The notes under the pieces are model-generated. The model was not told the DNA's origin. It made no database searches and saw nothing but the letters and a program-made list of their open reading frames with translations. This document shows, in pieces, positions 10,008 to 62,180 of a stretch of DNA of 64,000 bases (position 1 is its first letter; every line of letters starts with the position of its first letter). The stretch comes from a virus: the IMG/VR virus record IMGVR_UViG_3300001102_000006. One strand, written 5' to 3'. The position numbers were made by a program, and so were the translations under genes.

Positions 10008-10110
10008 GGGTTCCTCCTTTGTTAGTTGATTCTTGATACCTTGTTAGAACTGATTCGTCAACAAGAAAGGCCCGGAAAAACCGGGCCTTTGTTATCTTGT
10101 GCATACCGCG

Positions 10111-10353
10111 TCAGCGGTAAGGGTTGCCGTCTTTCAGCGCCTTGAGAACAGCGTTGATCTCGGCGGACATCAGACTGGAATCAATCAGGGCGTCTTGCAC
10201 CATGTCGATTGCGCCGTCGAACACGACTTCATCTTTTTGGTCGCCTTTGAGGCCGGATGCTTTGTCTTTCAGTGCCGTTGTTTGCTTGCTGATGGCATCG
10301 CCTGCGGTGTCTGCCAGTGCTGCGCCTCGGCGCAAAAGATTTCCAAGTGCCAT
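10111..10353 (-). CDS. Hypothetical protein
   Basis: AGGAG RBS, coding-like ORF. Confidence 0.6.
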   Translation of the reverse strand: MALGNLLRRGAALADTAGDAISKQTTALKDKASGLKGDQKDEVVFDGAIDMVQDALIDSSLMSAEINAVLKALKDGNPYR

Positions 10354-10354
10354 G

Positions 10355-10738
10355 TTACGTCTCCTTCGGTTGCGCACCGTTCATGGTGCCTTTGAGTTTA
10401 GCGATGATCCAAACCATCGCGCCGTTGATCCCGAGGTTTGCCATTTCATCCAGAAACAGCGTCGTGATCGAGAAGTCCAGCGCAATCACAAAGCCCTGTA
10501 TCGCCAGAAGTCCCCGTGCTGCCCACAGAAGGCCACGAGAGGCCAGATTGGGGTTGCTGCGCCGCAGGCGTTCGATCAGCCACAGAAGGGCACCACTGAC
10601 GCCCAGCGCCGCTAGTTCGTCAAAGAACAGGGTTTCCATGATGATGTCGGCGGCGATGATGAGGCCGTTGAAGCCGAGAAGAAGTCCCGCGATTAGCAGT
10701 GCGCCGCGCACCCACCAACGTCCTACCGACGCCGCCAT
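10355..10738 (-). CDS. Membrane protein with an internal two-fold repeat
   Basis: Hydrophobic segments; FFDELAALGVSGALLWLIERL vs FLDEMANLGINGAMVWIIAKL. Confidence 0.7.
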   Translation of the reverse strand: MAASVGRWWVRGALLIAGLLLGFNGLIIAADIIMETLFFDELAALGVSGALLWLIERLRRSNPNLASRGLLWAARGLLAIQGFVIALDFSITTLFLDEMANLGINGAMVWIIAKLKGTMNGAQPKET

Positions 10739-10915
10739 CAGATTGACTGCCAGCGGTGTGGCTTTTCAACCTTTGTCCCGGTCAGGACATAGCTGTAGGC
10801 CAAAACGAACAAGCGAACAGGGCGCATGATCGGGGAAAATTGGTAAAAGCGTTTCATGTGTTCCTCCTTATTTGTGTGGTGATGGGGCCGCGTTAGCGGC
10901 CCCGTCCGTGAGTGA

Positions 10916-11731
10916 TTACTGAATGGAGCGAATGATACTCGCAAAGCGCGCCAGTGCGGCGGGGTTTGCGGCGACCCAATCAGGGTTTGCGGCCCAGAAC
11001 GAACGCACTTCGATAGCGTCTTGCGAAACATTGCGCCAGCGTGCCGGGTGATCGATTTCGATGGTCGAGCGTGTGTAGAGAGCGCTGCGACCGAACTGGA
11101 AATCGTCAATGTCACGGTCGTCCAGTTCACCGAGTTCCCATCCCGCACCCAGAAGGGTTTGGATGATATCGGCGTCTGCCGAAGTCACGAGAATTGCCGC
11201 GTCGATCTCACCGAATTCAGCTTGGGTCGGTGCCAGAGCGAAAGGACCGAATACCGGTGTTGCCTCGGACCACGCAGACCCGTTGCCGTTCTCACCTTGC
11301 TCGATGCCCACGATGGTACGCCAGAAAAGCGCAGCGCCAGAGCCGATCTCGCCCACCAGAATGCTGTGGCTGGAGTCCAGATCATCCATTTCGTTGTAGC
11401 CGTCCGGCGGGAACAGGATGAAAGCGAATTCCTGTGCCGGGTAGGTCCCAACCGGTTGCAACGCGCAACCTTCGGAACGCATCTGAACCATGGCGTCGAT
11501 TTGCATGATGCCCAGTGGCGTATCGTTGTCGGCGCAGACAGACCGGGCGATGTCTTCGGAACCAGCAAAGTTCTCAGACTGCCAGCCGTCCCGGATTTGG
11601 GCAACAAAAGCGTCCGCGCGTGCGTCATATCCGCCGCCGTCGCGACCGGTGGCAATTGTTTGGGCCATGGCAGGCAGGGCCAGAGTGACTGCCGCAGCAG
11701 CCAGCACAAGTGTGCGAAGTTTCGTGATCAT
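10916..11731 (-). CDS. Secreted TAXI-type TRAP solute-binding-like protein
   Basis: Signal peptide, then IATGRDGGGY, AGSEDI, GIMQID and DL...ILVGEIGSG, which parallel TAXI motifs. Confidence 0.6.
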   Translation of the reverse strand: MITKLRTLVLAAAAVTLALPAMAQTIATGRDGGGYDARADAFVAQIRDGWQSENFAGSEDIARSVCADNDTPLGIMQIDAMVQMRSEGCALQPVGTYPAQEFAFILFPPDGYNEMDDLDSSHSILVGEIGSGAALFWRTIVGIEQGENGNGSAWSEATPVFGPFALAPTQAEFGEIDAAILVTSADADIIQTLLGAGWELGELDDRDIDDFQFGRSALYTRSTIEIDHPARWRNVSQDAIEVRSFWAANPDWVAANPAALARFASIIRSIQ

Positions 11732-11785
11732 GTGATCCTCCTTTTGGTTACGGTGTTTTTCGTATAAGTGATTCGTGGTGTGTTG

Positions 11786-12085
11786 TCAATCCAAATCTGT
11801 AAACCGAATTTTCACACCATCCTCGGCTTCGACCGTGAAGCCGGGTGTAGACGACTCCGGGTCTGCGGCGTATTCGTCTGCCCAACCTTCGGGTCCGCCC
11901 TCCCAGAAAATGAGAAACCCAAATTCCCCGTCTTCTGGTTTACGAAGCAATGCACGCCCACCATACACTTTGGCAGCTTCGTGGACGCTGCTCCAAAGAG
12001 CGTGTGCTGCATGAAATGCCGTAGTCATGTGTGACACAGCGATAAGGACCACAGGCTGATTCGTAACTGTAGCAACTTCAATCAT
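11786..12085 (-). CDS. Hypothetical protein
   Basis: ORF with RBS in operon. Confidence 0.6.
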   Translation of the reverse strand: MIEVATVTNQPVVLIAVSHMTTAFHAAHALWSSVHEAAKVYGGRALLRKPEDGEFGFLIFWEGGPEGWADEYAADPESSTPGFTVEAEDGVKIRFTDLD

Positions 12086-12443
12086 GTTGTTTGTTCCTTT
12101 CCCGGCTAAACCGCATTTTTTTGTTGCGGAGAAGCATGAATAATGGTAGTGAAAATGGAAACGATGTATGCCAAAATAGCAAATTCTCGTAATGGACCAT
12201 CGTAATGTAAACGATCTTTGCCATGTCCTCGGGAGATGCCAGCACGCGAACCGGTATCATTCGCTCTGCAAAAAGCTCTCCCTCATGTTCCCATTGTCCC
12301 TTAGCGGGCTGATAGATCGTAAGTCCGCCGCTGACCGCACGAACTTTTTCATCCCACGCCTTGTGGTGACGCATACGTACCGGCGTACCGTCATTCCATT
12401 GGCAAGGGACCAGAATTTCATACAAGTTTTTCTCAGAGGTCAT
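12078..12443 (-). CDS. Conserved-looking phage protein, possibly frameshifted near the C-terminus
   Basis: YEILVP...HHKAWDEKVRAVSGGLTI...ERMIPVRV; an alternative frame after HY gives EFAILAYIVS...stop. Confidence 0.55.
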   Translation of the reverse strand: MTSEKNLYEILVPCQWNDGTPVRMRHHKAWDEKVRAVSGGLTIYQPAKGQWEHEGELFAERMIPVRVLASPEDMAKIVYITMVHYENLLFWHTSFPFSLPLFMLLRNKKMRFSRERNKQHD

Positions 12444-12735: not shown

Positions 12736-13166
12736 CAGAACAACGGTATCACTTCCTCTGGGTCCATGGCAGACAGTTGATTGACTTCGGATTCCCAAAA
12801 TACCCGCTTGCGTTCGGCGTTAGGGTCATCCGGGTTATCCCACTCAACATCACGCGCGATTGCCTGTTGGCGTCTCGCCTTCTGCAATTCGACTGCGGCT
12901 GTGCTGAGCATGATTACCTCCTGTGATTCGTTTCTACAACATATAAGGTTGACAGAAACGTGTCAACACGAAAAAGGGGCTTTCGCCCCTTCATCATCTA
13001 CTCGCCTGTGGTCCAGCTTCGCACTGAATCAAGAAAACCCGGCGCGCTGGTTATCGCCCCTTGGACGGTGTTTCGGGCCATATCACACGTGTTCGGCAAC
13101 GCCCAAACAATCATAGTCGCCGTGAACATGCCCAGCACAAAAAGAAAGATATTTTTCCACATGTCC

Positions 13167-16277: not shown

Positions 16278-16439
16278 GTGGGTCTCCTTCTGTGGGTTTC
16301 CCTACAGATACGAGTTCACCAACGATTCGTCAAGCCCAAAAGGAGAAGTTCTGGATGGTCATAATAGATCGAATGCGGCACTGTGATGAGGCCAATAGAC
16401 GCCGCCACGACAATCAGATAGCTAACAATCACACGCATA

Positions 16440-18251: not shown

Positions 18252-18324
18252 GGGTTCCTCCTTGTAGCTTGTCTCTACACTAAGCCACCCATGACCGATT
18301 CGTCAAGACCTTTTTTGCTCTATC

Positions 18325-19917: not shown

Positions 19918-19965
19918 ACACTGTCCTCCTTATGATTCGTTTGGGTTTTTCGTTCAACCTTACTT

Positions 19966-21113: not shown

Positions 21114-21884
21114 GTTATTCCTCTTTGTCGTCAGAAATTGAAAAGACTGCGGGTTGCCCCGTGCGTACGCATGTGCGCAGACCAGCGATTATTTGCTCCG
21201 TACGCATGCGTTCAACGTGTCGCGCAATGCTGTCAGGCATTGCGTATGACGCTTCTGCAAGTCGCCCACTTTGGACGAATTGTTCCAGCAAATCTGCCAA
21301 CGCCCCCGCGTCAGCGGGCATGATGACGCCATCATCGCTCATGTGAAACAGCATGACCAGCAAGGGATCATCAGGCGTTTTGTTCCAGCGCCCCATTGCG
21401 TTGTCTTCGGTCAGCCCTTCTAACGGCAGAATCGGTGCCTCAAAAGAAACTCCATCTACTGTCTGCAACTCCATTGTGTATCCGGCAGCGCGCGCGACAA
21501 GTGCTCGCCATTGCAGGAACGCCATCGGGCTTCCCGTATCAGCAGTCCAGCACCCGTTTGAAATCTCAAGCTGGGCCATGTGCATCATACCAATCGTGAA
21601 GAACGCCAACCCAATCGATGCCGGTGCCATCAAGGTAATGCTCAGCGTTGGCAAATGCCCACTTGTGAAATGCCTGTTGCTGATCGGCGTCAAGTTCTGC
21701 GTATTCTTGCTCAACAATCAGCGTATCGCAAATATCTTCGAGAACGTCTTGCTGTGCTCCATATCGGTTCGCAAGGGTTTTTGTCAGTTCGGGCATGGTG
21801 GACCTCCTTTTGATTCGCTCTTGTTCAACGTAACAGGCTTGCCTGCATACTGCAACGGAAAAGGGCCTCCGCAGAGGCCCCAAA

Positions 21885-22604
21885 TCACTGAACGATTTCG
21901 TCTTCTTTGGCCACCATCGCCTGTAAGTCTTGACGTTGATCGGGTTCTTTGAGGCAGTAACCCCGCCCCCACACAGTGGAAATCAAACCGTCCGCGCCTG
22001 CTTCTGCGAGTTTTTTGCGCAGTTTACAGACAAAAACGTCCACAATTTTGACTTCGGGTTCATCCATGCCACCATACAAATGGTTCAGGAAGTGTTCTTT
22101 TGTGAGCGTAGTGCCTTTGCGCAGCGAAAGAAGTTCGACCATGCCGTATTCTTTGCCGGTCAGGTGTACCGGAGCGCCATACACGGTCGCGCTCTTTGCA
22201 TCCAGATCAACGACAAGGGGTCCGGTCTCGATTGTGGCGGATGAATGTCCTTTCGACCGGCGTACAACCGCCGTAAGTCGAGCAAAAAGCTCCACACGAT
22301 GGAAGGGAAGACCCATAACATCGTCAGCGCCTTCGGACAGAAGGGCGGCTGTTTCATCCGGATCGACAACGTTAACAAGGCACACGACTGGCGTGTGGAT
22401 GCGTGAGTTGCGTAGCCGGGTCAAAGTTTCTCGGGAGCCAAAAACGCCCAAGTTCATCAAGATCACATCATAGTCATATAGCGATGCCAGATCAAACGCT
22501 TCGTCAGCGGCGTCGGCAATGTACGGATTGAACCCCTTGCTGGACAAGGACATTTCAAGCAGGTTCGCCCGAGCAAGATTGTTTTCTACAACGAGGATTC
22601 GCAT
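21885..22604 (-). CDS. ctrA: CtrA homologue with a degenerate (non-phosphorylatable) receiver domain
   Basis: C-terminal HLTGKEY.M.ELLSLRKGTTLTKE.FLNHLYGGMDEPE.KI.DVF.CKLRKKL...TVWGRGY is nearly identical to CtrA; receiver has ENN for EDD, N at the D51 position and GLPF for TKPF. Confidence 0.93.
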   Translation of the reverse strand: MRILVVENNLARANLLEMSLSSKGFNPYIADAADEAFDLASLYDYDVILMNLGVFGSRETLTRLRNSRIHTPVVCLVNVVDPDETAALLSEGADDVMGLPFHRVELFARLTAVVRRSKGHSSATIETGPLVVDLDAKSATVYGAPVHLTGKEYGMVELLSLRKGTTLTKEHFLNHLYGGMDEPEVKIVDVFVCKLRKKLAEAGADGLISTVWGRGYCLKEPDQRQDLQAMVAKEDEIVQ

Positions 22605-23203: not shown

Positions 23204-24538
23204 TCACGCATTAGTATATACACGTGCTGCCGTTTGGGCGTAGATCGTCGCCAAGGCGAACACCTCTGCACGTTGGCTGGGGTTGATATTGTCTTCCATA
23301 TCCATTTGAAGGCGCGTTGCCGCGTGACGCATTGCTGCATCGGTGATCTCGGCGGCTGTGTCGCAGGCGCGCTGCATTTTGGTTTTGTGCTCAGATGCCA
23401 TGTCTATCTCCTAATGTCGTGGCCACATGAGAAGGACACGTGGTGAATTTTCCTGTGTCTCTGCCCATTCATCGTCAGTCATGTCCGCGTCAGCGGCGTC
23501 CCAGTTTGGGTCGTAAATATCCTCGGCGTCTTCGACACGAATGCCAATATCCGCACCCTCTGCCACACTGTATCCGTTGCCCTCCGGGTCTTTTTGCATC
23601 CAAACCTCCATATCATCAGGAAGTTGAGAAAGGACGGCTTTTAGCTGGGCAACGTTCATGTGGGTCTCCTTCAATGGTTCAGTGTATTTACGACGATTCG
23701 CGCGTCAGGTCAAGGGCGGTGCATACCTGTCCATTTCCGCTTGCGCGGCTTCAAGACGTTCTTTTGCCCGATCAAACCGGCGCACGCGCTCAAGTTCTGC
23801 AACCGCTTCCATCTCCGCCTTGGCTGCGGCAGAAATATTCAGGTGAGGCCAACGCTTGAACCACGCAATTTCATCCGATGTCGTCATAGACGGCTGCCCG
23901 TTGAACATGGAAGAAACGTGCGCCTTCATAGCGTGTTCATCGGCAAAGATCATGATGTCTTCATCGCCATCATCATATTTTCCCTGATAGTGCCATTGCG
24001 TGGCGTCGTGACGGTTGGACTTCAATTCAATATCAAACGGATTGCACGAGTGTGGAATGCCGGGACCTGTGGAAAGAACAAACGTGGGGTCTTCCCCAAT
24101 CAGGCGCTTGAAGTCGCGGACCCACTGGAACCGGCGTTCCAAAGCGCGGGCTTCCCCTTCAATTTCCTTGCGCATAGTTTCCATGTTTTGCTCTGTAACA
24201 CGCAGTTCCGTTCGCGCTGCGCCGATCTGCGAATTCAATTCGTCCAGCGCGGATTTTTTCTCCGCAACTGCTGCGGCGGTTTCGGCGTGTATTTTCCGCA
24301 CCCACGGTGTGCGTGACAGCTTAGCCAGCGGGATAGGGATCATATGATCTGCGACTTCTTCGTGCTCATCGAAGTCATCGCCGTGGTAGCTTGTGGTTTG
24401 GATAATAATGATTGGTGACACATACCCATGCTCACCTGCACGGTGGTCAAAGTAGTAATTGGTGCCATCCTGCGTGTAAACCGTATCACCTTTTTGGAAG
24501 TCGCGGTTGACAGCTTCGCCATTTGGAAACGTGCTCAT
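23204..24538 (-). CDS. Hypothetical ORFs (23204-23401, 23411-23659, 23705-24538 coiled-coil)
   Basis: RBS-preceded ORFs. Confidence 0.55.
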
Positions 24539-25596: not shown

Positions 25597-25649
25597 GCGG
25601 GTCTCCTTGTTCTGATTTACCTGCACCTTACATTCGAGATAATGATTCG

Positions 25650-25940
25650 TCAAGGACGAAATGGCATCAATCCACTGACCACAAACTGAGGCATATCATC
25701 GATCCAGATGTCCACTTCTTCGCCTTCCAGCTTCGCCATCTCCTGCTTGCTGCGTCGTGCGCAATAGATCACACGGTCACACAGGCGGTGATATCGTTGG
25801 TCTTCAATAGGTTCTTCGGCATACCGAAAGGTCGTGCCTATGATTCGAAAGCCTTTTCGTTTTAGCAGCGACATAGCTCCGAACCATGCATCCGGATCAG
25901 TCGTGAAAGTATCGTCATAGTCCAGTCCAATTGTGTGCAT
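25650..25940 (-). CDS. Small HAD-superfamily protein
   Basis: GLDYDDT motif I and IWIDD motif IV. Confidence 0.7.
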   Translation of the reverse strand: MHTIGLDYDDTFTTDPDAWFGAMSLLKRKGFRIIGTTFRYAEEPIEDQRYHRLCDRVIYCARRSKQEMAKLEGEEVDIWIDDMPQFVVSGLMPFRP

Positions 25941-27202: not shown

Positions 27203-27327
27203 ATATAGTAGGTTCACCCTCCGTGACGAACAAGCGCCCTGCCGAGTGTTGCCGTGAACCCTGTCCCAGTGATGGCAACGATCTGGGATGAGACTTACCT
27301 AAACGATGGTAAGTGATTCGTCAAGGG

Positions 27328-27804: not shown

Positions 27805-29629
27805 TCCACCTCCAAGGGAGCCGCACACTGGGCCATGCTGCCGTCAGGCATGTGTCGGTGTATCGGGACACCGCCCGCGCGCAGGCAGGCGTCTCTGTCG
27901 CGCTGCCACGCATTGTCGTGCGTCATTGCGTCAGACACCATCCACACCATACCGCCGACCAATACAACGATCACGAATATTGCAAAGGGGCGGGGATCAA
28001 GCATCTTCGTACTTTGCTTTGAGCCGCGCCAGTTCTGCCAGTTCCGCATCCATTGCAGCCTGTTTTTCGGCTTGGGTCATAGCGGATACGATGGCTTCCG
28101 CGTCAGTGCGTGCTTGGTCGATCCATGGCGGCATGACAAAAGTCATCTCAGCCTCAGATTTGAAGACTTCACCCGCATGTGCCCATGCTCGCCAAATGTC
28201 CCCGCTTTCCTCGCCGGAACCATCGAGTTGGAAGATAACACCGGGGTGATTCTTGCTCACCTGCGCTGCGTGATTTTCCCAGTCATACCACTTGGCCTCA
28301 TGAATCTCGAACGTGTTGTGTCCGGTCATGTCGACGCTATATCCAGACGTTTCAGCCAAATCTTTGGCCGCAGCTTGGGCGGCGGCGATGCTCTTGCTGG
28401 TCGCCTCGACTTCGAAATGTGTGTAATATCCCATGGGTTCCTCCTATGCAGGTTTCGCCATATTGGTATCCGATTCGCTTACGACAGTCAAGCCACTACT
28501 TACGTCCTTTGCAGACATAAGCATAGCCAACACCACGATTGGCGTGTTGATCACTTGCTCATATGTGAGGTTGAGGCGGCGGGCGAGTTCTTGAAAATGG
28601 CGTTCGGTGTGCTCTGGGTTGCGCATATTGATTCTCCTTTGTTGTTTCTAAGGAGAACATGGCACACAGATTTTAGCGGATCAAGAAACAGATACCTAAG
28701 ATTTTAATCCAAGGCATTCGATCACAAATTCGGGCCATTTGTTTTCGACGTAATCTTCTTCAAGATCGGTGTTCTGCCGCATCCAATTGCGCACTTGCAT
28801 CCCTTCCCGGAAATGAACAGGATGTCCAATGCCCGTAGTAGACGGAATTACCAAGGGAATTTCGCCGTATTCAATCCACCATTTGGAAAACAATTGTACA
28901 CCGTCTTCTCCCAACCATTGGACAAAATCTTTCTTTGTCTGTTCCTCAATTTGAGGCCAGTGCATGACTTTGTATTTCAGGTGGTCTCCGATCTGGGCGG
29001 CGGCAGCGCAATTCGCTTTGTCTTTGCCGTAAGTCGTAACGGATTCCCACCCGTCATCACCAACAACGCGACCAATGATAATTATCTGGTCGTAGCCATG
29101 GTCTTTGGCGACTTTCTCGGCGGCTGAAATAGGAATATCTTTCATTTGTAGGCCCAAATCCTTGCTTGTTTCTCCGGGCCTAAATCTTCTACGTAATTCA
29201 TGGCCTCGTTGAACGTGTAGGTTCCAATACCGGAATCATTCACGTCGATCACATAGCCCTGTGCGTTCGGACGCCAGAAGCCGTTCTCTGTGCGAATATG
29301 CACGAAAAGTTGTTGCTGCCACCAGATGGCGCGCTCACTGTCAGGATAGCGTTGAAAATAAGCGGGGCGGACCCAACAGAAGCCCTTCCACTCTCCAATC
29401 AGTGTGCGGCGGCTCATCGCTTGTCCCTCTTGAATACTGTGCAGTCAAGGCCCCCGTGTTCACACGTACACCCCATGCACCTTCCGGGTTCCCAACCGGG
29501 CTGTGCCGCCAGCCATCCAGAACGGAATGCATCCGCCAAGATGTTCGGCTCATTCGCGGGCATGCCATGACAGATCAGGGCAGATTGAATTTCAGGTGTG
29601 TTGAAATTCGGGTTGTTGTGCATACTCAT
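27801..29629 (-). CDS. Run of small hypothetical ORFs (27997-28434, 28444-28626, 28696-29145, 29142-29417, 29414-29629)
   Basis: Coupled ORFs with AGGAG RBS. Confidence 0.55.
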
Positions 29630-29656: not shown

Positions 29657-30295
29657 TTAATGCATGTATAACGACGATTCGTCAATACCATTCTTGTGAA
29701 TTTCTCCGTGCATCCAATGTGTGTCAGTCTGGACGTGATTGGGTCGCACAAACTTCGCAACACTCACGCCGAAGTCATCATAGTAAAATTCGTCTGCAAC
29801 ACGAACAACAAAACCCTCGTGCCCTTCTTCGTGTAGTGCCGCAATTTTAACCGGGTCCCACTGTCCATTATATAGAACCGGAACCGTGTCCATGTTCAGT
29901 CTAATGCACCAACCACGTGTATCTTTCCACGACAAACACACATTGTCAGGGTTCCACACAGAAATGAGCGGCAGATACGTGGATAGTTGCGTATAGGCGA
30001 TTGAATGTTGCGCATACAGATTCTCTGCGCAAACTCGATAGCCATTTTGAAGGAGATAAGAACGGCGTGTCCAATAGTTCTTGGCCCAATCTCGTGTCCA
30101 ATGCGTTCGCCCGTCTATGCTCCGGGCGTGCGTGCCGCCGTCAGAGTATCCCGTGAAGTTCTCGCCGTCCATTTTTCGTGTGACAACAACGCGTTTGCCG
30201 TCGAAATGTGACGTATCTTTTAGCACACGATCATCGTTCGTAGCTCCGGGGGAGGACGGCAAGTGTGGTGTGCGGGGATATTTATGTCGTTGCAT
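29657..30295 (-). CDS. Second RNA ligase (small Rnl2-like family)
   Basis: KYPRTPHLPSSPG, VTRKMDGEN, HARS, CAENLYAQHSI, HEGFVVR, AKFVR. Confidence 0.85.
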   Translation of the reverse strand: MQRHKYPRTPHLPSSPGATNDDRVLKDTSHFDGKRVVVTRKMDGENFTGYSDGGTHARSIDGRTHWTRDWAKNYWTRRSYLLQNGYRVCAENLYAQHSIAYTQLSTYLPLISVWNPDNVCLSWKDTRGWCIRLNMDTVPVLYNGQWDPVKIAALHEEGHEGFVVRVADEFYYDDFGVSVAKFVRPNHVQTDTHWMHGEIHKNGIDESSLYMH

Positions 30296-33769: not shown

Positions 33770-33832
33770 GTGTACGTCTCCTTTTGATTCGTCGTCACCT
33801 CTCTGTGATGACACACGCAGGTTTACAGGGTC

Positions 33833-37618: not shown

Positions 37619-39388
37619 CTATCCAGTTGTGTTGACGACGATCAGGCGTGCATGCGTTTGCAGCACATCAGCGATTGTCGGGTGATATTTTTGAGCGAGC
37701 GCCGCGAATTGTGACGCCTCAAACCCTGTGAGTTCGACCAGTTCAAAGCTGTCATACCAGCAATCAATACTCGCCAAGCGTAGGCCAACGCCGCCGGTTT
37801 CGTACCCGAATTGGAATTCGTTGATATAGTCATCCTCGAATTCGTAGTCCTTTCCAAGAACCGGATCAGGCAAAGAGATTTGAACGCCGCCGCTCAATAC
37901 CAATACGCGGTGTGATTCATTCACCTCGCGCTCATATGGTTCTCCCGTCATCTCATTGTAACGGGTGACTTTGCGCGGCGTCTTGGCGTACACAAACGGC
38001 ACGCCATACATCACGGTTGCAGAAGGATCGACGCCCATCAGCTTGCCATCGCAGCGATAAGCATGTGTCCGCCACCCATCAGGATGAAAATCAAAAATCC
38101 CCATCCAATAAGATTCCAAAAGTCTCCCATACAGCCTCCTACAGCAGTGCTTCCGCGTCTGCCTTATTCGTGTGAACGGACAGCACAGTCTTTGTGACCT
38201 TGCCCATGAAATGGACGATCTCGACTAGTGCCCATCCGCGTTTGTGCTTCTCGACCCTCCGCTGACCTTTCGGTAGCGGATGGGTGCGAGGGCGAACCAT
38301 TTGTACCGGTGACACCGGCTGGACCATGTTCGGGTTCATCAGAACCAGAGAACGAAGCCGTGGATCACGCCGACAGGCGGGACGAACGTGCCGATGATGC
38401 CCAGCGTGATCTGTCCGCCAGTCGCACCGAGGTCCGATGCAAGGGTCTGAACGATCCAGATGACGTGCGTCAGCCATGCGCCGAGGACAGCGAAGAAGAA
38501 TGCGATAACAGCCAGAAAGCCGCCAAGGCCGAGTTTTTCCGAAAGTGACATGTAAGAACCTCCTAATGATTCGTTGTTGATGAGACCTATGTATCAGGTC
38601 AAGAAGTTGCGCGCAACCTATAATCTGTATGTTTGTCGCATGAAGGGCATATCGTCCTCACTTTTGACGTTGACCAGACAGGCATTGACCCACGTCTTAT
38701 CACCGGACGGCAACGTTCTCATGTGTCCCCGGCGATAGTGCGGGCGCGGTGATTTACCGTCACCGGTATCGCGGCTGTCGCCGCGTTGATAGGATCGAAG
38801 GGCTGTGAAATAGTTGTTGTCGGGCTTATGATATCCGGCACGATACACGCGCTTGCCTTTTGCTTTGGGAGGCGTTGTTTGCCATCCCACGCCTTTTGTA
38901 TTCAGCACAGAGACGAGATTGTAAATCACCGACCGCATCGAAACGGTTTCGTCTTCGGATGATTGCCGAATTGGCTCCATATCTTTGTCAGAGAATACGG
39001 TAATGCCTATAATCAGAAAGCCTTCACGTTCATGCGTGAAAGAAATAGCGCATACTTCTCCAATCTCATGGGTATAGAAAACCAACACGCTATAGCGGTG
39101 CAAATTCTCTTTCGATTGAAAAGTGACCAGCCACGGTTCTTGGAAAGGCAGAGACGCAATTCCTTCTTGGAACAATTCCATTCCCAAATAGGCTGTGTCA
39201 ATAAAACTCTGGGGGTCCTGTTTTCCCAAATCAAATACACGGCCCGTTAGGGCCGATTCAATTAGCAATTCATTTGTGCCAATGAATAGATCATTCGGCA
39301 GCATGAATTCCAATTCTTTCAATGCCCCGAATAGAGGCTTAGGCTGCGCCAATTGCGACAGGAATACTTTTTGATTTGCAATGAACAT
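37619..39388 (-). CDS. Hypothetical ORFs (37619-38119, 38339-38551 membrane, 38618-39388 with PRPHYRRGH motif)
   Basis: ORFs with RBS. Confidence 0.55.
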
Positions 39389-40722: not shown

Positions 40723-41188
40723 GCCAGAGACCATTATTTCTGTTGATAGATTTTGAACAAGCGGCGGCTCAGGCGGACACTCTAAACAAAATAGGGTCCA
40801 ACCCGGTGATCTTGGGCAATGCAGTATGTTATATTTACGAAAGTAACGCCTCACCCGGTGATCTGATATGCGCACCGCAGGCTCTCTTTATTACCAATTC
40901 ATTTATTTTTATTATGACTCTCTCTGAAAGAATCTAGGTTTCTTACTTAAATATAACAATTCTATTTGTACAAGTCTACCGGGTAACGGGTTACTTTGGT
41001 GAAAATAACTGCTCGGATTTGAGGCACTTACCGGTCGCATAAATACGACAGTATTTCGGTTGACATGCGCAAAGGACCTGTGGTAGTGGTGCGTGGTCAC
41101 GTGACGAATCGTGAGGAACAATGGATGGCTGCGTTTCCTTACACCCGCGTCAGCGGGTGATGCAGTCTTCTGTGGATATGGAGATAGA

Positions 41189-47454: not shown

Positions 47455-47980
47455 GGGTGTCCTCCGCTTTGTATGATTCGAAGTTATAGCCGATTGTCTC
47501 GTTGAACACAACCTCCCTTCCGCTGTCATTGAGAATTACCCAGACAGTCCACTTACCATTGATTTCGGCGGAGCGCAGAACGACACCAAGCGTTCCCTTG
47601 GACACAGGCACGAAACCCTTGGTCCCATCAATCTTGACATTTTTCCGCCGGTTGAATTTGAACGGTCCCCACTTACAGGGAACATAAGTGCCGTAGCATT
47701 TCTGTTCGTAGATCGCTGCGAGGCAGTTTGCAGTGACGCGAATGATGCGGCCTTTGTAGTATTCAGCGTGACCATCACGCGGCTCGTCGTGATCTGGAAC
47801 CCGGCTGATCTCAGCCCAATGTGTTGCCCGGAACCGGCGCGGATCACCCTGCCAACCAACCCGAGTGTTTCCGGACGGGCTATCGACTTGAAGAAATTTC
47901 ATCGTTTCCTGATGTCCACGATGCCCGACAATATACGTGCCGCTTTTTGTTGGTGGGGTAGTTAGTGGGGTCCAATTCAT
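47444..47980 (-). CDS. Hypothetical protein
   Basis: W.P...PP.KSGTY...THWAE N-terminal module. Confidence 0.55.
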   Translation of the reverse strand: MNWTPLTTPPTKSGTYIVGHRGHQETMKFLQVDSPSGNTRVGWQGDPRRFRATHWAEISRVPDHDEPRDGHAEYYKGRIIRVTANCLAAIYEQKCYGTYVPCKWGPFKFNRRKNVKIDGTKGFVPVSKGTLGVVLRSAEINGKWTVWVILNDSGREVVFNETIGYNFESYKAEDTHGE

Positions 47981-48881
47981 TCGTCATCTCCTTCATCCAA
48001 ACACTTCTCACAGGCGTTGCAAGACCAGCAGTAACGGCAGCCGCAATCGCTCCCACCGCAGTCGCAGCAGTCATATACATTGTCGCAGTCACAATCGTCG
48101 TCCATCGTTCGCCCTCCAAATTTTGCTTAGCCTTACATCTATATGATTCGTTATGGTCCGTCAACAGGAAAATGCTTGACAAGATGTGACAATTTGTGTT
48201 AGACATGTTGGGCCAGATAGGCTCATCTGGTGTTCCTCCTTCAAACTGTCCCGGCTTCGCGCCGGGACTTTTTTCGGGACCCACCGATATCGATCTACCG
48301 GGTGGGGAGGGCGAAAAAGGGATTGTAGTAGCGGGAAAGAAACCTGAATCCCTGAGATACCCATTAAGATCGCCAGTAGCTTTCCCATTTCCTCCCACAC
48401 CATACCACCCATTCCCAGCAGCCGCCGGGAAAGTTAAGAGTATGTGAAGATGTAAGCCCTGCGTAAATTTGGCAGACCTTCATTCTTTCTCTCGGACGAT
48501 TTGTTTTTTCAAAATTGCATCACCATCTCAGCCCAAAATGAGATGTGACAATTTAGAGACCCAGTTTAATCGATTCGCCGGGTGGGTCACGAATCACAGT
48601 ACCCGAATCGTGTGAACATCTAACTAACTGATTTTGCTCAATTTATTTTGTCACATCTCAATTATTGACGTGACAATTTGCCTGAAACGTCACATTTAGG
48701 CTCCGACAAGCCCTGATTTGCCCCCGACACAGGCGAATCAGGGCTTTTTGTCTGCCGGGACCCACCATGATTCGAGATGGGGGCACGGTACTAATTTTGC
48801 TGATGTTGACTTTTTCTACGCTGACGAGTTTTTATTATAGAGATGCGTTGTTTATTAAACTTTTCGCTGTAGCGTATAAAC

Positions 48882-49907: not shown

Positions 49908-50084
49908 GTATCAGGTGTTCGCAGCGTTTTGGGTTTCCGCTGTGACGCCTCCTGCCTCGGCAGCGCCTCCTGTTCCTCATGGCAGTTGATGGCGCTGCCG
50001 GGGTCCTTTTCTCACCCGCTGACGCGGGCACATGAAAACAAGAAACCTATTGACATCATCAAACGAATCAGGTATACGGTAATC

Positions 50085-50663: not shown

Positions 50664-50741
50664 GAAAAAGAACAGAGTCCGCACTCCTAACCCGTCCCCT
50701 ACTCGCCCGGTGTCCGCCGCGCTTTCCTGACCTCACATTTA
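50664..50741 (-). ncRNA. Repeated small RNA, copy A
   Basis: TTGCGA-17-TAATCT promoter, TGTGAGGTCAGGAAAG, hairpin, AGTAGGGGACGGG, terminator. Confidence 0.65.
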
Positions 50742-51046
50742 GATTAGATCATTGCCCAGTGATTCGCAAGGGCTAAAATAGGCGTCTTACAGATCAGACA
50801 TTTCAGCCTCGCACCGCGCTAGACCACTAAGGCCCGCTTACAGTAACGGCACGACTCCGCGTGCTATCCTGCGCCTATCTCTAAGCTATCGCCTGCGGTT
50901 TGATTCGTCAAGCGATATAAAGGCGATTGCCGCGATACCGACTCCAACGGCAAGAAACAACGCCGCCAAGGGATTCCACATGGTCACCCATACGTTACAG
51001 AATGCCCCGATTGACATCCCCGCCCATAAATACGCGCGCCCTGTCA

Positions 51047-51278: not shown

Positions 51279-51350
51279 GTGATTCCCTTTCTTTGATAAC
51301 CCTTTGTCGCATGATTCCCCGTGCCAGTCAATAGAAAATTTGCGCAACCT

Positions 51351-51366
51351 TGTTTCACGTGAAACA
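51351..51366. other. parS: parS centromere palindrome 1
   Basis: TGTTTCACGTGAAACA, exact consensus. Confidence 0.9.
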
Positions 51367-51419: not shown

Positions 51420-51737
51420 TTAGATTGCCACGGCTTCCCCGCCTGCGGCGGTCAATTCGACCAGCCAAACGGGTTTGCGACCGCGACCGGACCACGTAAG
51501 CGATTCGTCATCGGGGTGCCGGAATTTCGGCGCGGCGGGATGCACGCGCTTGGCGTTCGGGAAAACATCCTTGACCGTGAAACCGTGCGACTCAATCAAT
51601 TCGATTGCAGCATCCTTGCACGCGGCAAGCCGTTCCTTTTCGACCTGCGGGGCCAGCTTTGCAGCATCGGCGGCAAGCGCCTTGAGCGCGGCGGGGTCCA
51701 TGGTGGAAAGGTCAATACCGTGGGTTTGGGTTGTCAT
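51420..51737 (-). CDS. hns: H-NS family nucleoid protein (HvrA-like)
   Basis: IDLSTMDPAALKAL N-terminus; PKFRHPDDESLTWSGRGRKPVWL DNA-binding motif. Confidence 0.9.
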   Translation of the reverse strand: MTTQTHGIDLSTMDPAALKALAADAAKLAPQVEKERLAACKDAAIELIESHGFTVKDVFPNAKRVHPAAPKFRHPDDESLTWSGRGRKPVWLVELTAAGGEAVAI

Positions 51738-51910
51738 GAAAAAAGTCTCCTTGGGTTTGTGGCGTTGTTCGCCGTTTCGATAAAACAGTTATTGCATGGG
51801 AAAAAACGATTCGCAAGACAAAAAAGCAAGGTAAGCCAAAATTTTTATCCTTGCATCGGCTTTGCCCCTATGTCATAAGGTATGCATCGCAACGCCAAAA
51901 AGGAATCGGC

Positions 51911-52672: not shown

Positions 52673-53037
52673 GAAAGGAAAAAACATTCAACTAATCACA
52701 ATCGGAATCCTAGTGGCCCTTTACGTTGTTCTAGGTCACTTCTAAACTAGGCGGGGGGAATCATCCCCCGCCACAAAACAGAAAGGCAAAACCCATGGCC
52801 AAAGATAGCAGAAACGAAAAGCACGAAAACCGCGACCGCAAGCGCGACCGCGACGGGGTGCAAGCTAAGCGCCGCGATGCACGCCGCGCCAAGGCAAAGC
52901 GCCGCGCGTTTGAGGCAAGCGGAAAGCACCGCTAAGAAAGTGAAGGCTAGGCGAATTTTTTACTTGCGAATCGCCTAGCCGCATGCGATAAACAGTTATC
53001 GAAACGGCGCAACGCCACAACCCGAGGAACCTAAAAC

Positions 53038-53429: not shown

Positions 53430-53478
53430 AGGTAGCGGTAAATTACTATTGACACCGGACCCCGAATCACTCTAATCT

Positions 53479-53556
53479 AAATGTGAGGTCAGGAAAGGCG
53501 CGCCGCCCGCGCCAAGTATGGGACGGGTTAAGAGAGCGGAGTCCGTTCTCTTTTTT
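53479..53556 (+). ncRNA. Repeated small RNA, copy B
   Basis: TTGACA-18-TAATCT promoter, same motifs, terminator GAGAGCGG-AGT-CCGTTCTC then T6. Confidence 0.65.
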
Positions 53557-53636
53557 GTTTCCAACGTTTGAACGGATTCCTGCGACCCTCGCGTCCCCTA
53601 CTTGATGCTGTCGGCATCTTTCCTGACCTCACATAT
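53525..53636 (-). ncRNA. Repeated small RNA, copy C (convergent on B)
   Basis: TTGCGA-17-TAAGGT promoter, TGTGAGGTCAGGAAAG, GATGC-CGACA-GCATC hairpin, AAGTAGGGGACG; 3' end uncertain. Confidence 0.55.
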
Positions 53637-53770
53637 ACCTTAGCCGCGCGTTGCGTGATTCGCAAGAGAAAAAAATTTCGTTTGACCTGTTTTTTGTGTT
53701 GCGAATCGTTCGGGAATATGGGAAAACAGAATCACGGAAACACAAACAGACACCTAGAGAGGTTCACACA

Positions 53771-54767: not shown

Positions 54768-55096
54768 AAAGAAAAGCCCGCTAACGCGGGCTTTTTGCTT
54801 GCGAATCATTTGAAAGGATGCGATAAATAATTATCGAAACACAAACCCAATGGAGGCCAAAATGGCTGATACTACTTCTCTCGAATATTACCTTTCACCT
54901 GAATACGCTGCTAAGTATGCAGCAGAACAAAAGGCTTTAGAGGAAAGCCGGGGAAGGGTAGCCCTAACAAAGCGGCGCAATTGGGAAGCGCTGCACGGGG
55001 AACCCGCCCCTCGATGGATGTGAAAGAAAAGCCCGCTAACGCGGGCTTTTTGTCTTGCGAATCATTTGAAAGGGTGCGATAAATAATTATCGAAAC
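54768..55096 (+). repeat. Near-identical ~73-bp terminator-plus-promoter cassettes (54768-54840, 55023-55096)
   Basis: AAAAGCCCGCTAACGCGGGCTTTTTG(T)CTTGCGAATCATTTGAAAGG(A/G)TGCGATAAATAATTATCGAAAC. Confidence 0.85.
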
Positions 55097-55365: not shown

Positions 55366-55415
55366 CAAACAAAGAAACCCTGCTAACGCGGGGTTTCTGA
55401 TTCGTTCCGCGCGCT

Positions 55416-55487
55416 AAAAAAGAGAACGGACTCCGCACTCCTAACCCGTCCCCTACTTGGCGCATCCGCCTTTCCTGACCTCACAAA
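55416..55487 (-). ncRNA. Repeated small RNA, copy D
   Basis: TTGCGA-17-TATGGT promoter, same motifs, GGCG-GATG-CGCC hairpin, terminator with T6. Confidence 0.65.
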
Positions 55488-55604
55488 TACCATACCGCGA
55501 CCCTAAACGATTCGCAACACAAAAAACAAGGCAACGGTAAATTATTATGCTTGCGAATCGCCTGCACATATGCGACAAAGGGTTATCAAGGAAAGGAACC
55601 CACA

Positions 55605-56434: not shown

Positions 56435-56519
56435 AGGTAACGGTAAATTACTATTGACACCGAACAACGAATCGCCCTATAAAGGGTTATCGAAACAACA
56501 AACCCAAAGGAACGAAAAA

Positions 56520-58082
56520 ATGGGCACTCGCGCTGCATACACCTTCAAAGATGACACTGGCGTTTTCCACGTCTATAAGCACTGGGATGGATATCCCACG
56601 GGCGCGGCAATGCACCTGAAAGCTACGCTGGAATCCGGCAAGGCTTGGGCACTGCCCCGCTATGAAGCGGATGAATTCGCCGCCGCGTTTATCGCTGCAA
56701 ACAAAGATTCGGACGGCGATATTCGCTTGCTGAAAAGCCCCCGTAAAGTTGGCGACATTGAATTCGCCTATACCGTATGGCAGGCGGGTGATGGCGAATT
56801 GATGATCCGCGTGCAATCCGTCAATAACTGGGATAAGTGGCAGGCGGAAACCCTGTGGCGCGGCAAGCTGGCAGAATTCCTTGATACCGGCGCGGAGTCC
56901 ATCGAATGAAACCCCTTGTCCTATTCCTCACCATATGGGGCGCTGACGCGCCCCACGATGGCCCAATGGTCTACGTCATGGGCGGAAACCTGACGCCGCA
57001 AGCCTGCACCGCTGGCATGGTTGCCCTTGATCGTATGGCAACGCTTGTGGGCGGGTCTGTATCGTGCGAGTTTGACCTTGCAGAACCCCACGACTCACCC
57101 GATGCACCGCTAGTGCGCTTCCCCGCTTGTGAGTATGAGGACTCCACCAATTGCATATGGAATGCGCAAGAACGGGGTAACGGTATCGGGCAATCCTTTT
57201 ACAACGTCTATGGCGATGTGTTGCCCATTGACTGGAACAACGAATCGCAATAACATCTAAGATGTGACAAAACGAAACCCAAAAGAAAGCCAAAGCTATG
57301 ACCCACGCCCCGACCCTGTTACCAACGCAAGGCACCGCAATTCAGATGGCGGATGTCTATTTCAATCTACACCGGGGGGTGTGGTCCTGCCGTTCGCGCA
57401 AAACAGGGCGAGTCGAGCATCACGCCCGTGCCGTTGTTTCGCTCGATCCTGTCGCCATGGTGGTGCAGCAAGCGGGCCGCGCCAAGGTATGCCGCACGGG
57501 GCAAAAGAATGTGCATGCATTCGCCCGCATGGCGCTGGGCGTTGTATCCGATGACGTGCAGGGCTGGGCTGATTATGCCAATGCAATCCCCGGCCTTGTG
57601 CGCCTGTCATATTCCCCTACCTATGCGGGGCACTTCTATCGTGTCGATACGAAAGAACCTGTGACCCACGTGCAGGGGCTGTATATGCTGGCCCCCTGTG
57701 GTGCGCCGCCCCGCGTGCTGGCCTATCTGTAAGATGTAGGGCAGGGCAAAATTACTATTGACCCTGCCCCACGAATCACCTATAACAGTAGGTATAGGAA
57801 CACAGACACACAAGGACAGAGACAATGGCATCCATCGACACATACATCTACATCGAGCACAACGGCACAGAGTATGAGTGTGCTGTCACTGTGGAAGGTG
57901 ACGTTAGCCATGGTGGCAGCAACAGCTATGGTAGCGATGAGCCTGAATGGACAGAGGTGGATGACGTGACCGTATACAACGCACGTGGCAAGCGCGTGAG
58001 CAAGCGCCTGATGGATAAGATTGATGCAAAGCAATGGGATCACATGACAGACCTGCTAGTCGAGGCTGATGCAAGCTGGTGA
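56520..58082 (+). CDS. Early hypothetical ORFs (56520-56909, 56906-57253, 57298-57732, 57825-58082)
   Basis: Promoters and RBS; VYKHWDGYP; VYFNLH. Confidence 0.6.
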
Positions 58083-58361: not shown

Positions 58362-58457
58362 CAAATCTGGACCGGGACAAGAACATACCGTAAAATAAGG
58401 TACTTGACACAAATTTATCTGTACGTTACATTCACAAGACACAACGCAGGAGGACCC

Positions 58458-60657: not shown

Positions 60658-60733
60658 GGGGCCTTCGTCTAGCGGTCTAGGACGCCTCCCTTTCAAGGTG
60701 GAAACGCGGGTTCGAATCCCGTAGGCCCTTCCA
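60658..60733 (+). tRNA. tRNA-Glu(TTC)
   Basis: Cloverleaf, CT-TTC-AA loop, GGTTCGAATCC, encoded CCA. Confidence 0.92.
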
Positions 60734-60754
60734 AAATTTAATAGAGAGGTACAT

Positions 60755-61033
60755 ATGGACCTTCTCAATCTGCACCCTCCAATGCCCGAGGGCAAGGAAC
60801 ATCTCGTCTATCGCGACTTTCCAAAAGTGCGCAAAGGACTGTTTGATTGGTTTCTTGAACAGCTTGAACCGTATGAGCTTGAGGTCTTGACCTACGCTCA
60901 ATACGAAACCGAACACGGGCTTCTTGCCCGAGGACAGATTTGGGTTAACCCTGACGGGTTAGCGCTATTGCCAGAAGCCCTTGAACGGGATATGGCTAAA
61001 CTAATCGCTGCGGGTCATATTGATCCGGAGTGA
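60755..61033 (+). CDS. Hypothetical protein
   Basis: GAGG RBS; lies between tRNA genes. Confidence 0.6.
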   Translation: MDLLNLHPPMPEGKEHLVYRDFPKVRKGLFDWFLEQLEPYELEVLTYAQYETEHGLLARGQIWVNPDGLALLPEALERDMAKLIAAGHIDPE

Positions 61034-61058
61034 GGGGTTCGCCCCGCGCTCTTTGACA
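61034..61058 (+). promoter_or_regulatory. rrn-type boxB/boxA antitermination-like element
   Basis: GGGG-TTCG-CCCC hairpin followed by CGCTCTTTGACA. Confidence 0.55.
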
Positions 61059-61271
61059 ATTTGGTGTTCTGAACGTTGCTCCACGGATGTGGGTTAAACA
61101 ATACGGCAATGTGCGCTGATAGGGGCCTCCCAACGGGGGTTATCCGATGACCGGCGTCCCTTACGGGGAACAATTATTTGGCGCGCATCCGGGATATTCC
61201 TGTGTTCGTTTCCGTGTTTGCCTCCTTAGTGCTTTGGCACTTCTCGGATGCGCACCTAATGATTGTTCTAT

Positions 61272-61343
61272 CGAGACATGGTATGGTGGGTGTAGGTTGC
61301 GCAACCTCTCACGCGGATGGTTCAATTCCTCCGGTCTCGTCCA
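61272..61343 (+). pseudogene. Degenerate tRNA-like gene, anticodon unassignable
   Basis: CGAGAC/GTCTCG acceptor, GGTTCAATTCC T-arm, TCCA end; poor D-arm and irregular anticodon arm. Confidence 0.5.
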
Positions 61344-61478
61344 AAATTAGCGGAATCACGAGGTTCTTGGCACAGACGCCCCAACGTCCCTGCCCTGATA
61401 CTGGTCGTGCCGTTGGATTGGGGTCCACGAGAGTTCCCGTCTGTAAGTCGGGCATAAAATACTCAAGTTTTCTTATTT

Positions 61479-61554
61479 GTGTCTGTGGTGATGCTGGTGC
61501 CCACATCGGATTGAAGTCCCGAAGATGAAGGTTCGATTCCTTCCGGACACACCA
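61479..61554 (+). tRNA. tRNA-Phe(GAA) with G37
   Basis: GTGTCTG/CGGACAC acceptor, TTGAAGT loop, GGTTCGATTCC, ACCA. Confidence 0.85.
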
Positions 61555-61679
61555 ATACTACGTGCTGCTGAACAAGTGGCACCAACTTTGCAAGGTTCAT
61601 TCGGGAGCGTGGTGGCGCTTGACTGGAACCAGTCTGGATCAGATGACGTAAAATATGCCCTTGCAACTTCCACCGCTTT

Positions 61680-61751
61680 TGTGTCACCGCATGGTGCGGA
61701 CATCGGTCTCATAAGCCGAATGACTGGGATCGTTACCCAGTGACACAACCA
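61680..61751 (+). tRNA. Atypical tRNA with CAT anticodon (Met/Ile2)
   Basis: TGTGTCA/TGACACA acceptor, TCGGT-CTCATAA-GCCGA, T-loop ATCGTTA, short D-arm. Confidence 0.65.
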
Positions 61752-62180
61752 AATAAATGGTACTGTCCAAAGATACCGGGCAGCTAAGACGCCGAGAGAG
61801 GGAGATCGGTAGTGCCGAACGCTTGACACAACAGACGAATCGTTCTATACGACACACAACACGGAGCAGCGGGGAAACGTCCTGATCCCCAGTGGTGAGG
61901 TTGTGTGCAGCCGAGGCTAAGCTAATGACATAGGAACTTACCGAGATGCCGGTCAACGCCCGCTATCGGACAAAACTATGATCAAGCTGATCGTCTCCGC
62001 AGGAGCCGCCAAGCAATAACACAAAGCATGGGCGTGACTTGGTTGGTTGAGAGGAACCAACACTTTTTTCTGAGGCGCATCCCCCGACCAAAATAGAGGC
62101 GGTTTAGGGACCGTTCCGATCCCTAGTCGGACGAGGTGTATCACCAAGCGAGGCGGGGTGCGCCTGAGAAAGAAGTGATT

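Follow-up and report, generated by a model that had tools for sequence, protein, structure and literature searches.

In Caulobacter crescentus, the methylation site preferred by the regulator GcrA is TGATTCG, or more broadly YGAKTCK (Haakonsen et al., PMC4647560). At GcrA-regulated promoters, such sites were described as "narrowly centered around -20" or spread from +2 to +30 (PMC4647560), and Wu et al. (PMC9976885) placed GcrA boxes between the -35 and the -10, at -20 ± 1 and -30 ± 2, or downstream of the start, at +5 to +30. The 10-bp step was attributed to a requirement that the GcrA DNA-binding domain occupy the face opposite RNA polymerase, and the scaffold used for cryo-electron microscopy carried Gm6AATC (m6A, N6-methyladenine) at -22 to -18 (Wu et al., PMC9976885). 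Among phages, phiCbK encodes a GcrA homologue, gp222 (PMC3556154). Here, we describe a CGAATC box that recurs in the predicted sigma70-type promoters of a marine metagenomic phage, IMG/VR record IMGVR_UViG_3300001102_000006, of which a stretch of 64,000 nucleotides (64 kb; hereafter the window) was analyzed. Through about 30 such promoters, the phage probably couples its gene expression to the DNA-methylation and cell-cycle machinery of its host.

The original prediction listed 19 coordinates, and GAATC or GATTC was present at each of them in the context described. In promoter orientation all 19 have CGAATC with A or G as the next base, so that the opposite strand reads YGATTCG, the only variant that had been claimed. 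The GcrA preference invoked in its support was also borne out, the motif being the published best GcrA site TGATTCG/YGAKTCK (PMC4647560). About 14 further sites were found, and the observation is real and more extensive than first noted. The words TTGCGAATC (10 copies) and TGACGAATC (9 copies) were among the commonest 9-mers of the window, while TTGACGA[C/G/T]TC did not occur in it and TTGCGA[C/G/T]TC occurred twice.

A comparison of intergenic with coding DNA, suggested earlier as a check, gave a clear contrast. In the 12.8 kb of non-coding DNA, YGATTCG (CGAATCR) was found 36 times against 3.95 ± 2.2 expected from 300 dinucleotide shuffles (maximum 12), an enrichment of about ninefold, and CGAATC/GATTCG 39 times against 7.4. 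GASTC was, if anything, depleted (10 vs. 18 in shuffles). Of the 65 non-coding GANTC sites, 36 were YGATTCG, and 24 of those 36 were TGATTCG. In coding DNA, GANTC occurred 112 times against 155 ± 8.6 expected from synonymous-codon shuffling. With transfer RNA (tRNA) T-loops excluded, oriented CGAATC was present in 18 of 48 scanned upstream regions (at least 45 nt long), so that box promoters rank among the major types in the window; others exist, the promoter of a CtrA-like gene being without a box. The exclusion concerns the tRNA T-arm GGTTCGAATCC, which contains CGAATC (window position 60713; also in tRNA genes of relatives) and inflates non-coding GANTC counts, so that masking is needed in genome-wide counts. 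Maximal-order Markov k-mer statistics were not useful, as sub-words absorbed the signal.

Promoters were laid out by placing the -10 hexamer 16–18 nt after the -35 and taking it as -12 to -7, which yields predicted transcription starts. The two fixed geometries first proposed were recovered. The GANTC centre lay at -28/-29 in 17 cases, seven with TTGACGAATC (class A) and ten with TTGCGAATC (class B), and at -18/-19 in ten promoters of the form TTGAC-N8-9-CGAATC-N3-4-TAnnnn (class D), where the box precedes the -10 by 3–4 nt. The -35 element was TTGAC(A/G/C/T) or TTGCGA, with a spacer of 17 ± 1 nt. The -10 elements were weak, of the form TAnnnn or, in promoters with TTGCGAATC, TGnGAYAAA, and the A at -11 was kept in 26 of 27, a combination that fits promoters needing a factor for open-complex formation. 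Because the -10 elements are weak, a scan for Escherichia coli-type promoters was uninformative here: between 50 and 58.5 kb it returned 7 matches vs. 5.7 in shuffles and recovered a single box promoter, 57228(+). Classes A and D shared little sequence beyond the -35, the box and the -10, and some class B promoters were near-identical paralogues (e.g., 54799 and 55055). The added sites comprised two copies of TTGCGAATC (53665(-) and 55517(-)), which both diverge from a promoter already listed, spacer-type boxes at 11789(-), 23713(-), 28491(-), 48164(-) and 57228(+), and a GGAATC variant at 51331(-). One of the ten TTGCGAATC copies, at 52377(+), lies within a gene and lacks a -10; it is unlikely to be a promoter.

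A third class, absent from the original prediction, consisted of seven leader boxes in which CGAATCR preceded the ribosome-binding site by 1–2 nt, or by 8 nt at 47480. Five of the seven had a good TTGAC(A/G)-17/18-TAnnnn promoter upstream, with box centres at about +5, +7, +13, +21 and +26 from the predicted starts. Within about 40 bp of a predicted start, GANTC was found between the -35 and the -10 of 27 promoters and in five to seven leaders (Table 1).

Table 1. Predicted box promoters, leader boxes and neighboring features of the window. Centres are those of GANTC relative to the predicted start; "added" marks promoters beyond those first listed; the leader boxes are all new as well.
Feature	Position	Strand	Sequence and context
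Class A promoter	10033..10061	-	TTGACGAATC, 17 nt spacer, TATCAA; centre ~-28; upstream of RNA-ligase operon
Class A promoter	16305..16333	-	TTGACGAATC ... TATCTG; centre ~-28
Class A promoter	18277..18306	-	TTGACGAATC ... TAGTGT; centre ~-29
Class A promoter	25625..25653	-	TTGACGAATC ... TAAGGT; centre ~-28
Class A promoter	27296..27324	-	TTGACGAATC ... TAGGTA; centre ~-28
Class A promoter	29657..29685	-	TTGACGAATC; -10 ambiguous, CATTAA or TAAGGT
Class A promoter	50883..50911	-	TTGACGAATC ... TAGCTT; centre ~-28
Class B promoter	50741..50769	-	TTGCGAATC ... TAATCT; centre ~-29; small-RNA copy downstream
Class B promoter	51788..51816	-	TTGCGAATC ... AATAAC; upstream of H-NS-like gene
Class B promoter	52964..52992	+	TTGCGAATC-N14-TGCGATAAA; centre ~-29
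Class B promoter, added	53637..53665	-	divergent from 53699(+); small-RNA copy downstream
Class B promoter	53699..53727	+	TTGCGAATC ... GAAAAC; upstream of DUF932 gene
Class B promoter	54799..54827	+	TTGCGAATC-N14-TGCGATAAA; terminator immediately before
Class B promoter	55055..55083	+	TTGCGAATC-N14-TGCGATAAA; terminator immediately before
Class B promoter, added	55489..55517	-	divergent from 55551(+); small-RNA copy downstream
Class B promoter	55551..55579	+	TTGCGAATC-N14-TGCGACAAA
Class D promoter, added	11761..11789	-	TTGACA-N9-CGAATC-N3-TATACG; centre ~-18
Class D promoter, added	23685..23713	-	TTGACC-N8-CGAATC-N4-TAAATA; centre ~-19
Class D promoter, added	28463..28491	-	TTGACT-N9-CGAATC-N3-TACCAA
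Class D promoter, added	48136..48164	-	TTGACG-N9-CGAATC-N3-TAGATG
Class D promoter	50050..50078	+	TTGACA-N9-CGAATC-N3-TATACG
Class D promoter	53449..53478	+	TTGACA-N9-CGAATC-N4-TAATCT; small-RNA copy downstream; parS-like palindrome upstream
Class D promoter	56454..56483	+	TTGACA-N9-CGAATC-N4-TATAAA; parS-like palindrome upstream
Class D promoter, added	57228..57256	+	TTGACT-N8-CGAATC-N4-TAACAT; sole box promoter in E. coli-type scan
Class D promoter	57758..57786	+	TTGACC-N9-CGAATC-N3-TATAAC
Class D promoter	61823..61851	+	TTGACA-N8-CGAATC-N4-TATACG; tRNA region
Class D-like promoter, added	51303..51331	-	TTGACT-N8-GGAATC-N4-GACAAA; box without C; parS-like palindrome upstream
Leader box	12924..12930	-	CGAATCA, 1 nt before AGGAGG; TTGACA-17-TATGTT at 12966; centre ~+5
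Leader box	19933..19939	-	CGAATCA, 2 nt before AGGAGG; TTGACA-17-TAGAAG at 19991; centre ~+21
Leader box	21811..21817	-	CGAATCA, 2 nt before AGGAGG; TTGCAG-17-TACGTT; centre ~+7
Leader box	33785..33791	-	CGAATCA, 2 nt before AGGAG; TTGACG-18-TAAACC; centre ~+26
Leader box	38567..38573	-	CGAATCA, 2 nt before AGGAGG; promoter assignment ambiguous
Leader box	41105..41111	+	CGAATCG, 2 nt before AGGAAC; TTGACA-18-TAGTGG at 41060; centre ~+13
Leader box	47474..47480	-	CGAATCA, 8 nt before GGAGG; gene junction within operon; no clear promoter found
GATAA-N4-TTATC element	52985-53005		
GATAA-N4-TTATC element	54820-54840		
GATAA-N4-TTATC element	55076-55096		
GATAA-N4-TTATC element	56475-56495		
Small-RNA-like unit	50664-50741	-	
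Small-RNA-like unit	53479-53556	+	
Small-RNA-like unit	~53560-53636	-	
Small-RNA-like unit	55416-55487	-	
DUF6456 (GafA-like) gene	46090-46902	-	Pfam
H-NS-like gene	51420-51737	-	

With an uncertainty of ±1–2 nt, the three sets of phage box centres (-18/-19, -28/-29 and +5 to +26) coincided with the published GcrA positions. The GcrA/CcrM promoters of C. crescentus (e.g., PcsM, with Gm6AATC at -22 to -18, PmipZ and cckA) have in common with those of the window the YGAKTCK/TGATTCG flank, one asymmetric box each, and centres at about -20, about -30 or +5 to +30, and they have a sigma70-type core with a TTGAC -35 and a weak -10, as is predicted for the window promoters (PMC4647560, PMC9976885). 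Unlike them, the window promoters belong to a phage genome, where they are apparently the main recognizable promoter type; the -29 box is here a fixed part of the composite word TTG(A)CGAATC, flanked by further conserved modules, namely an upstream palindrome (about -50), the extended -10 TGnGAYAAA and a leader sequence. The occurrence of the same oriented 7-mer at several positions is better explained by a reader on a separate tether than by direct contact with sigma.

Taken together, we consider it rather probable that the boxes mark host-GcrA-assisted, CcrM-methylation-sensitive sigma70 promoters. Each promoter would carry one GcrA box, a GANTC in its high-affinity form YGATTCG, whose adenines would be methylated by the CcrM of the host. 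Host GcrA, seated on domain 2 of sigma70 in the RNA polymerase, would read the methylated box with its small, flexibly tethered DNA-binding domain, and this reading would help the polymerase to bind and open promoters with weak -10 elements. The box could be effective from three places within reach of GcrA: at about -29, where it overlaps the 3' end of the -35, at about -19, and in the transcribed leader; the first two would be separated by one helical turn and would both face away from the polymerase. The cell-cycle context of the window was counted in favor of this interpretation: in addition to a DUF6456 protein and an alphaproteobacterial transfer-messenger RNA (tmRNA), the window encodes a CtrA/OmpR-type response regulator (21885-22604(-)) with a strong Trans_reg_C match and a Response_reg match of only 31 bits (Pfam). 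The response of the promoters to methylation and GcrA is what we infer from motif and position; methylation, GcrA binding, activation and the start sites are likewise predicted here from sequence.

The window has a G+C content of 51.8% and derives from a large tailed phage. It belongs to a 142,936-bp JGI contig (BBAY65_10000040, JGI 3300001200); three DNA sequencing runs of a single algae-metagenome study from 2016 contained the stretch, and no RNA run was listed for it. Genes in it were called with a heuristic of our own, and all open reading frames (ORFs) of at least 250 aa were scanned against Pfam. Its terminase was 65–69% identical to those of DSS3P8, vB_RpoS-V10, RpAliso, DSS3_MAL1, MD18 and RcXuper, roseophages with genomes of 146–150 kb; for the terminases of phiCbK-like Caulobacter phages the identity was about 36%. 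Sequence comparison thus makes the phage a distant relative of the 147-kb roseophages DSS3P8, MD18 and RcXuper; at the DNA level, the matches to these relatives were short intergenic blocks only, and an exact 40-mer search found no match among viral contigs or metagenome contigs. The window encodes a permuted tmRNA of alphaproteobacterial type and five tRNAs, from which the host is almost certainly an alphaproteobacterium.

The promoter words were compared among the complete genomes of DSS3P8, MD18, RcXuper and RpAliso. There were 12, 7, 24 and 16 copies of TTGCGAATC, respectively, and 0–1 of the other N-variants. The distance from TTG to CGAATC peaked at 3/4 in all five genomes, including the window, and at 13/14 in four of them, with few such cases in RpAliso, so that the 10-bp step of the window recurs in the relatives. 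A shared architecture was evident in the relatives, with GCTTSAAGC at about -50, an A/T-rich stretch, TTGCGAATC, 14 nt, TGnGACAAA, the leader ACCGAAACG and the ribosome-binding site; the 9-bp palindrome GCTTSAAGC occurred sometimes also within the spacer and was present in 28–45 copies per genome. A second common form was CTTGCA-N8-CGAATC-(N)-TGnCAnAA, in which the box directly precedes an extended -10. In the non-coding DNA of the relatives YGATTCG was 1.5- to 6.7-fold enriched, while in coding DNA it was reduced to 0.04–0.46 of the synonymous-codon-shuffle expectation, compared with 0.28–0.65 for YGAKTCK and 0.67–0.89 for other GANTC, so that the purge is graded in parallel with the GcrA site ranking. 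The identity of the motif, its enrichment, geometry and orientation, its conservation across the family and its removal from coding DNA were all observed directly.

Depletion of GANTC as a unique signature was rejected, for CCNGG and TANTA were depleted equally or more. CCNGG was the most depleted palindromic pentamer of coding DNA in four of the five phage genomes and the third most depleted in MD18, at 0.45–0.63 of the synonymous-shuffle expectation (z -8 to -21 across the five genomes), which suggests that a restriction system of CCNGG or CCWGG type is being avoided. With CCNGG depleted more than GANTC, depletion alone is weak evidence, and it is the contrast between coding and promoter DNA and the grading that are informative.

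The original prediction saw no gcrA or ccrM in the window, and none came to light: neither PF07750 (GcrA) nor PF01555 (CcrM-type methylase) was listed among the called genes at 1–56 kb of the window or in 34.6 kb to its left, while the small ORFs at 56–64 kb were covered by tblastn only, with the GcrA-like protein of MD18 as query. That query had no match in the window or the left flank. The search of the rest of the genome that had been proposed was thus carried out as far as this flank, again without finding either gene; in total, 99 kb of a 143-kb genome were examined, and the approximately 44 kb outside probably comprise the structural module and more tRNAs. In four of five roseophage relatives gcrA was not found, MD18 alone having a GcrA DNA-binding domain. 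The MD18 sequence (108218-108589 of its record) is a DNA-binding domain only, of 45–53 aa, fused in frame to a protein of about 70 aa that DSS3P8, RpAliso and RcXuper encode without the domain. It was about 71% identical to the solved Caulobacter domain (PDB 5YIU), with I37 replaced by L and with R33 and G38, residues of the m6A pocket (PMC5887438), kept. GcrA DNA-binding domains 72–84% identical to the MD18 copy were found in more than 500 bacterial genomes, and the best 80 were nearly all from Rhodobacterales. The simplest reading of these sequences is that the phage family relies on the GcrA and CcrM of its hosts.

Two further genes of the left flank touch on regulation and restriction. A 117-aa protein encoded about 23 kb left of the window has an N-terminal helix-turn-helix (HTH_23, sigma70 region-4-like) and is a candidate transcription regulator. 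It was rejected as a GcrA analogue, its Pfam matches being to generic helix-turn-helix families and its best solved relative being RacA (E 0.07). About 15 kb left of the window, a 179-aa protein with a PvuII-type restriction endonuclease domain adjoins the DNA polymerase gene; no methyltransferase was listed near it.

Several observations weigh against GcrA-assisted, methylation-sensitive promoters. All starts are predicted to within ±1–2 nt, and some boxes lie at -18, 1 nt outside the published -20 ± 1. In filter binding, GcrA preferred methylated DNA by only 1.4- to 1.7-fold (PMC4647560). Neither five complete relatives nor the 99 kb examined here yielded a CcrM-type methylase, and phage DNA that replicates fast might therefore be under-methylated. 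In MD18 most boxes read CGAATCT (AGATTCG) and so depart from the consensus at the Y. The coding depletion of GANTC is moderate (0.57–0.83) and exceeded by that of CCNGG, and in the coding calls of the window YGATTCG showed no clear depletion (9 vs. 10.6 expected), partly because several promoters overlap ORF calls. Lastly, the leader boxes keep a constant distance to the ribosome-binding site and not to the promoter; a role at the RNA level is thus possible, and boxes of this class may act on DNA or on RNA.

Other explanations of the box were weighed against the same evidence. CGAATCR could be bound by another factor of phage or host, methylation being irrelevant and the overlap with GANTC incidental, which we regard as unlikely. 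Some findings would accord with it: no gcrA was found in the examined phage DNA, small uncharacterized helix-turn-helix proteins such as the 117-aa protein exist, MD18 prefers the CGAATCT flank, and phiCbK has GANTC in another setting (GTCGTGAATCTTGACA), with the flank that ranks lowest for host GcrA (PMC4647560). It would, however, require a double coincidence, that the site be the top GcrA consensus and that it stand at exactly the three GcrA positions. Moreover, the 117-aa protein shows no detectable similarity to GcrA, a dimeric regulator would require a repeat where the box is single and asymmetric, and all four GANTC variants are depleted in coding DNA, which points to GANTC itself as the selected unit. 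An intrinsic element (an extended -35 or a spacer element) read by the host polymerase with neither accessory factor nor methylation appears less probable again: no single polymerase surface could reach the same heptamer at two places 10 bp apart and downstream of the start, and N-variants other than the box are essentially absent after TTGAC/TTGC. In favor of such an element, the -35 hexamer and the box overlap in classes A and B, and in the class D promoters of relatives the box abuts the TG of an extended -10. TTGACG, in addition, resembles TTGACGS, the -35 consensus of Caulobacter.

Restriction avoidance (HinfI-type GANTC enzymes) combined with descent from duplicated promoters, in the absence of any regulation, is very improbable. 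Avoidance predicts depletion everywhere, and non-coding YGATTCG is instead enriched ninefold, although the joint coding depletion of GANTC and CCNGG is a typical signature of it. Common descent could account for those class B promoters that are near-identical paralogues, but not for classes A and D, dissimilar outside the -35, box and -10, nor for the persistence of motif and offsets at 65–69% terminase identity with different upstream operators.

If host GcrA and CcrM do serve these promoters, DNA methylation might further be a built-in timer or sensor of host state for which the phage needs no regulator of its own, a tentative proposal that we put forward as doubtful. Fully methylated virion DNA would then fire the GcrA-box early and middle promoters at entry; as replication outpaced CcrM, the boxes would become hemi- or unmethylated and the promoter class would be switched off. 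Alternatively, expression would be licensed only at a GcrA- and CcrM-positive stage of the host cell cycle. The CtrA-like protein of the phage, which appears receiver-defective, might raise host ccrM expression.

In the library searched, we found no paper that joins roseophages with GcrA or that describes GANTC or GcrA boxes at the promoters of phages. Recognized parallels outside the GcrA system include Dam (GATC) promoters of mobile elements (phage Mu mom, IS10 pIN, P1 cre), in which the site of an orphan methylase lies in the -35/-10 region and output follows methylation, and hence replication state, a likeness to the window promoters. The Dam systems differ in methylase and site, and in them methylation acts via the repressor OxyR or directly on polymerase binding, with no sigma70-bound m6A reader. 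In phiCbK, for which a full-length GcrA was confirmed, GANTC likewise stands beside a TTGACA -35; the word (t)GTCGTGAATCTTGACA occurs about 19 times (JX100813; e.g., 19458, 22401, 30470, 33217). The GANTC of phiCbK differs in abutting the upstream side of the -35, with its centre at about -38, one further helical turn upstream, in a flank (AGATTCA) that is the lowest-ranked for host GcrA, and in a phage with its own full-length GcrA. Phage promoters with CtrA boxes resemble those of the window in that sites for a master regulator of the host cell cycle tie infection to host physiology, but the regulator is CtrA and the motif TTAA-N7-TTAA (PMC9437464). In the same study, phages of Alphaproteobacteria were scanned with a GcrA matrix and no positional asymmetry was seen (Mascolo et al. 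2022, PMC9437464); the present architecture was therefore not visible at that level.

Other elements accompany the box promoters. The -10/start region of class B and some class D promoters carries GATAA-N4-TTATC followed by CGAAAC (GCGATAAATAATTATCGAAAC), and the leader ACCGAAACG is present in 26–30 copies per genome in MD18, RcXuper and RpAliso; the GCGATAAATAATTATCGAAAC/ACCGAAACG region may function as an operator or represent a 5' end that is conserved. A parS-like palindrome, TGTTTCACGTGAAACA, was found at 51351, 53414 and 56419, about 50 nt upstream of the promoters 51331(-), 53449(+) and 56454(+), in the position occupied by GCTTSAAGC in the relatives, i.e., the same promoter architecture with the upstream operator swapped. 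Immediately 3' of four predicted GcrA-box promoters lay paralogous small-RNA-like units (TGTGAGGTCAGGAAAG ... AAGTAGGGGAC), which are kept in DSS3P8, RpAliso and RcXuper; an Rfam scan returned tRNAs and the tmRNA only, with no family for the four copies. Finally, a 0.8-kb non-coding region between divergent gene blocks (48136-48780) contained a cluster of CGAATC/GATTCG, with sites outside promoter geometry at 48577(-), 48590(+), 48604(+), 48734(+) and 48774(-) and with the repeats GGGACCCACC/GGTGGGTC and AGATGTGACAATTT. DSS3P8 has a counterpart of about nine sites at 139.1–140.0 kb, and the cluster might serve as origin, terminus or regulatory hub.

GcrA/CcrM is an epigenetic module of the alphaproteobacterial cell cycle whose regulon has so far been described for chromosomal genes only. 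The approximately 30 natural promoter variants per genome, with the box at -29, at -19 or in the leader, would form a test series for the distances over which a sigma70-tethered m6A reader works, and the cultured relatives DSS3P8 of Ruegeria pomeroyi, MD18 of Phaeobacter inhibens and RcXuper of Rhodobacter capsulatus offer testbeds. If the interpretation is true, a family of abundant marine roseophages builds the best GcrA box into most of its early and middle promoters, and its gene expression, and perhaps the outcome of infection, would hinge on the methylation and cell-cycle state of the host. Should the timer also prove true, the coupling of this whole family to the cell cycle of its hosts would be epigenetic.

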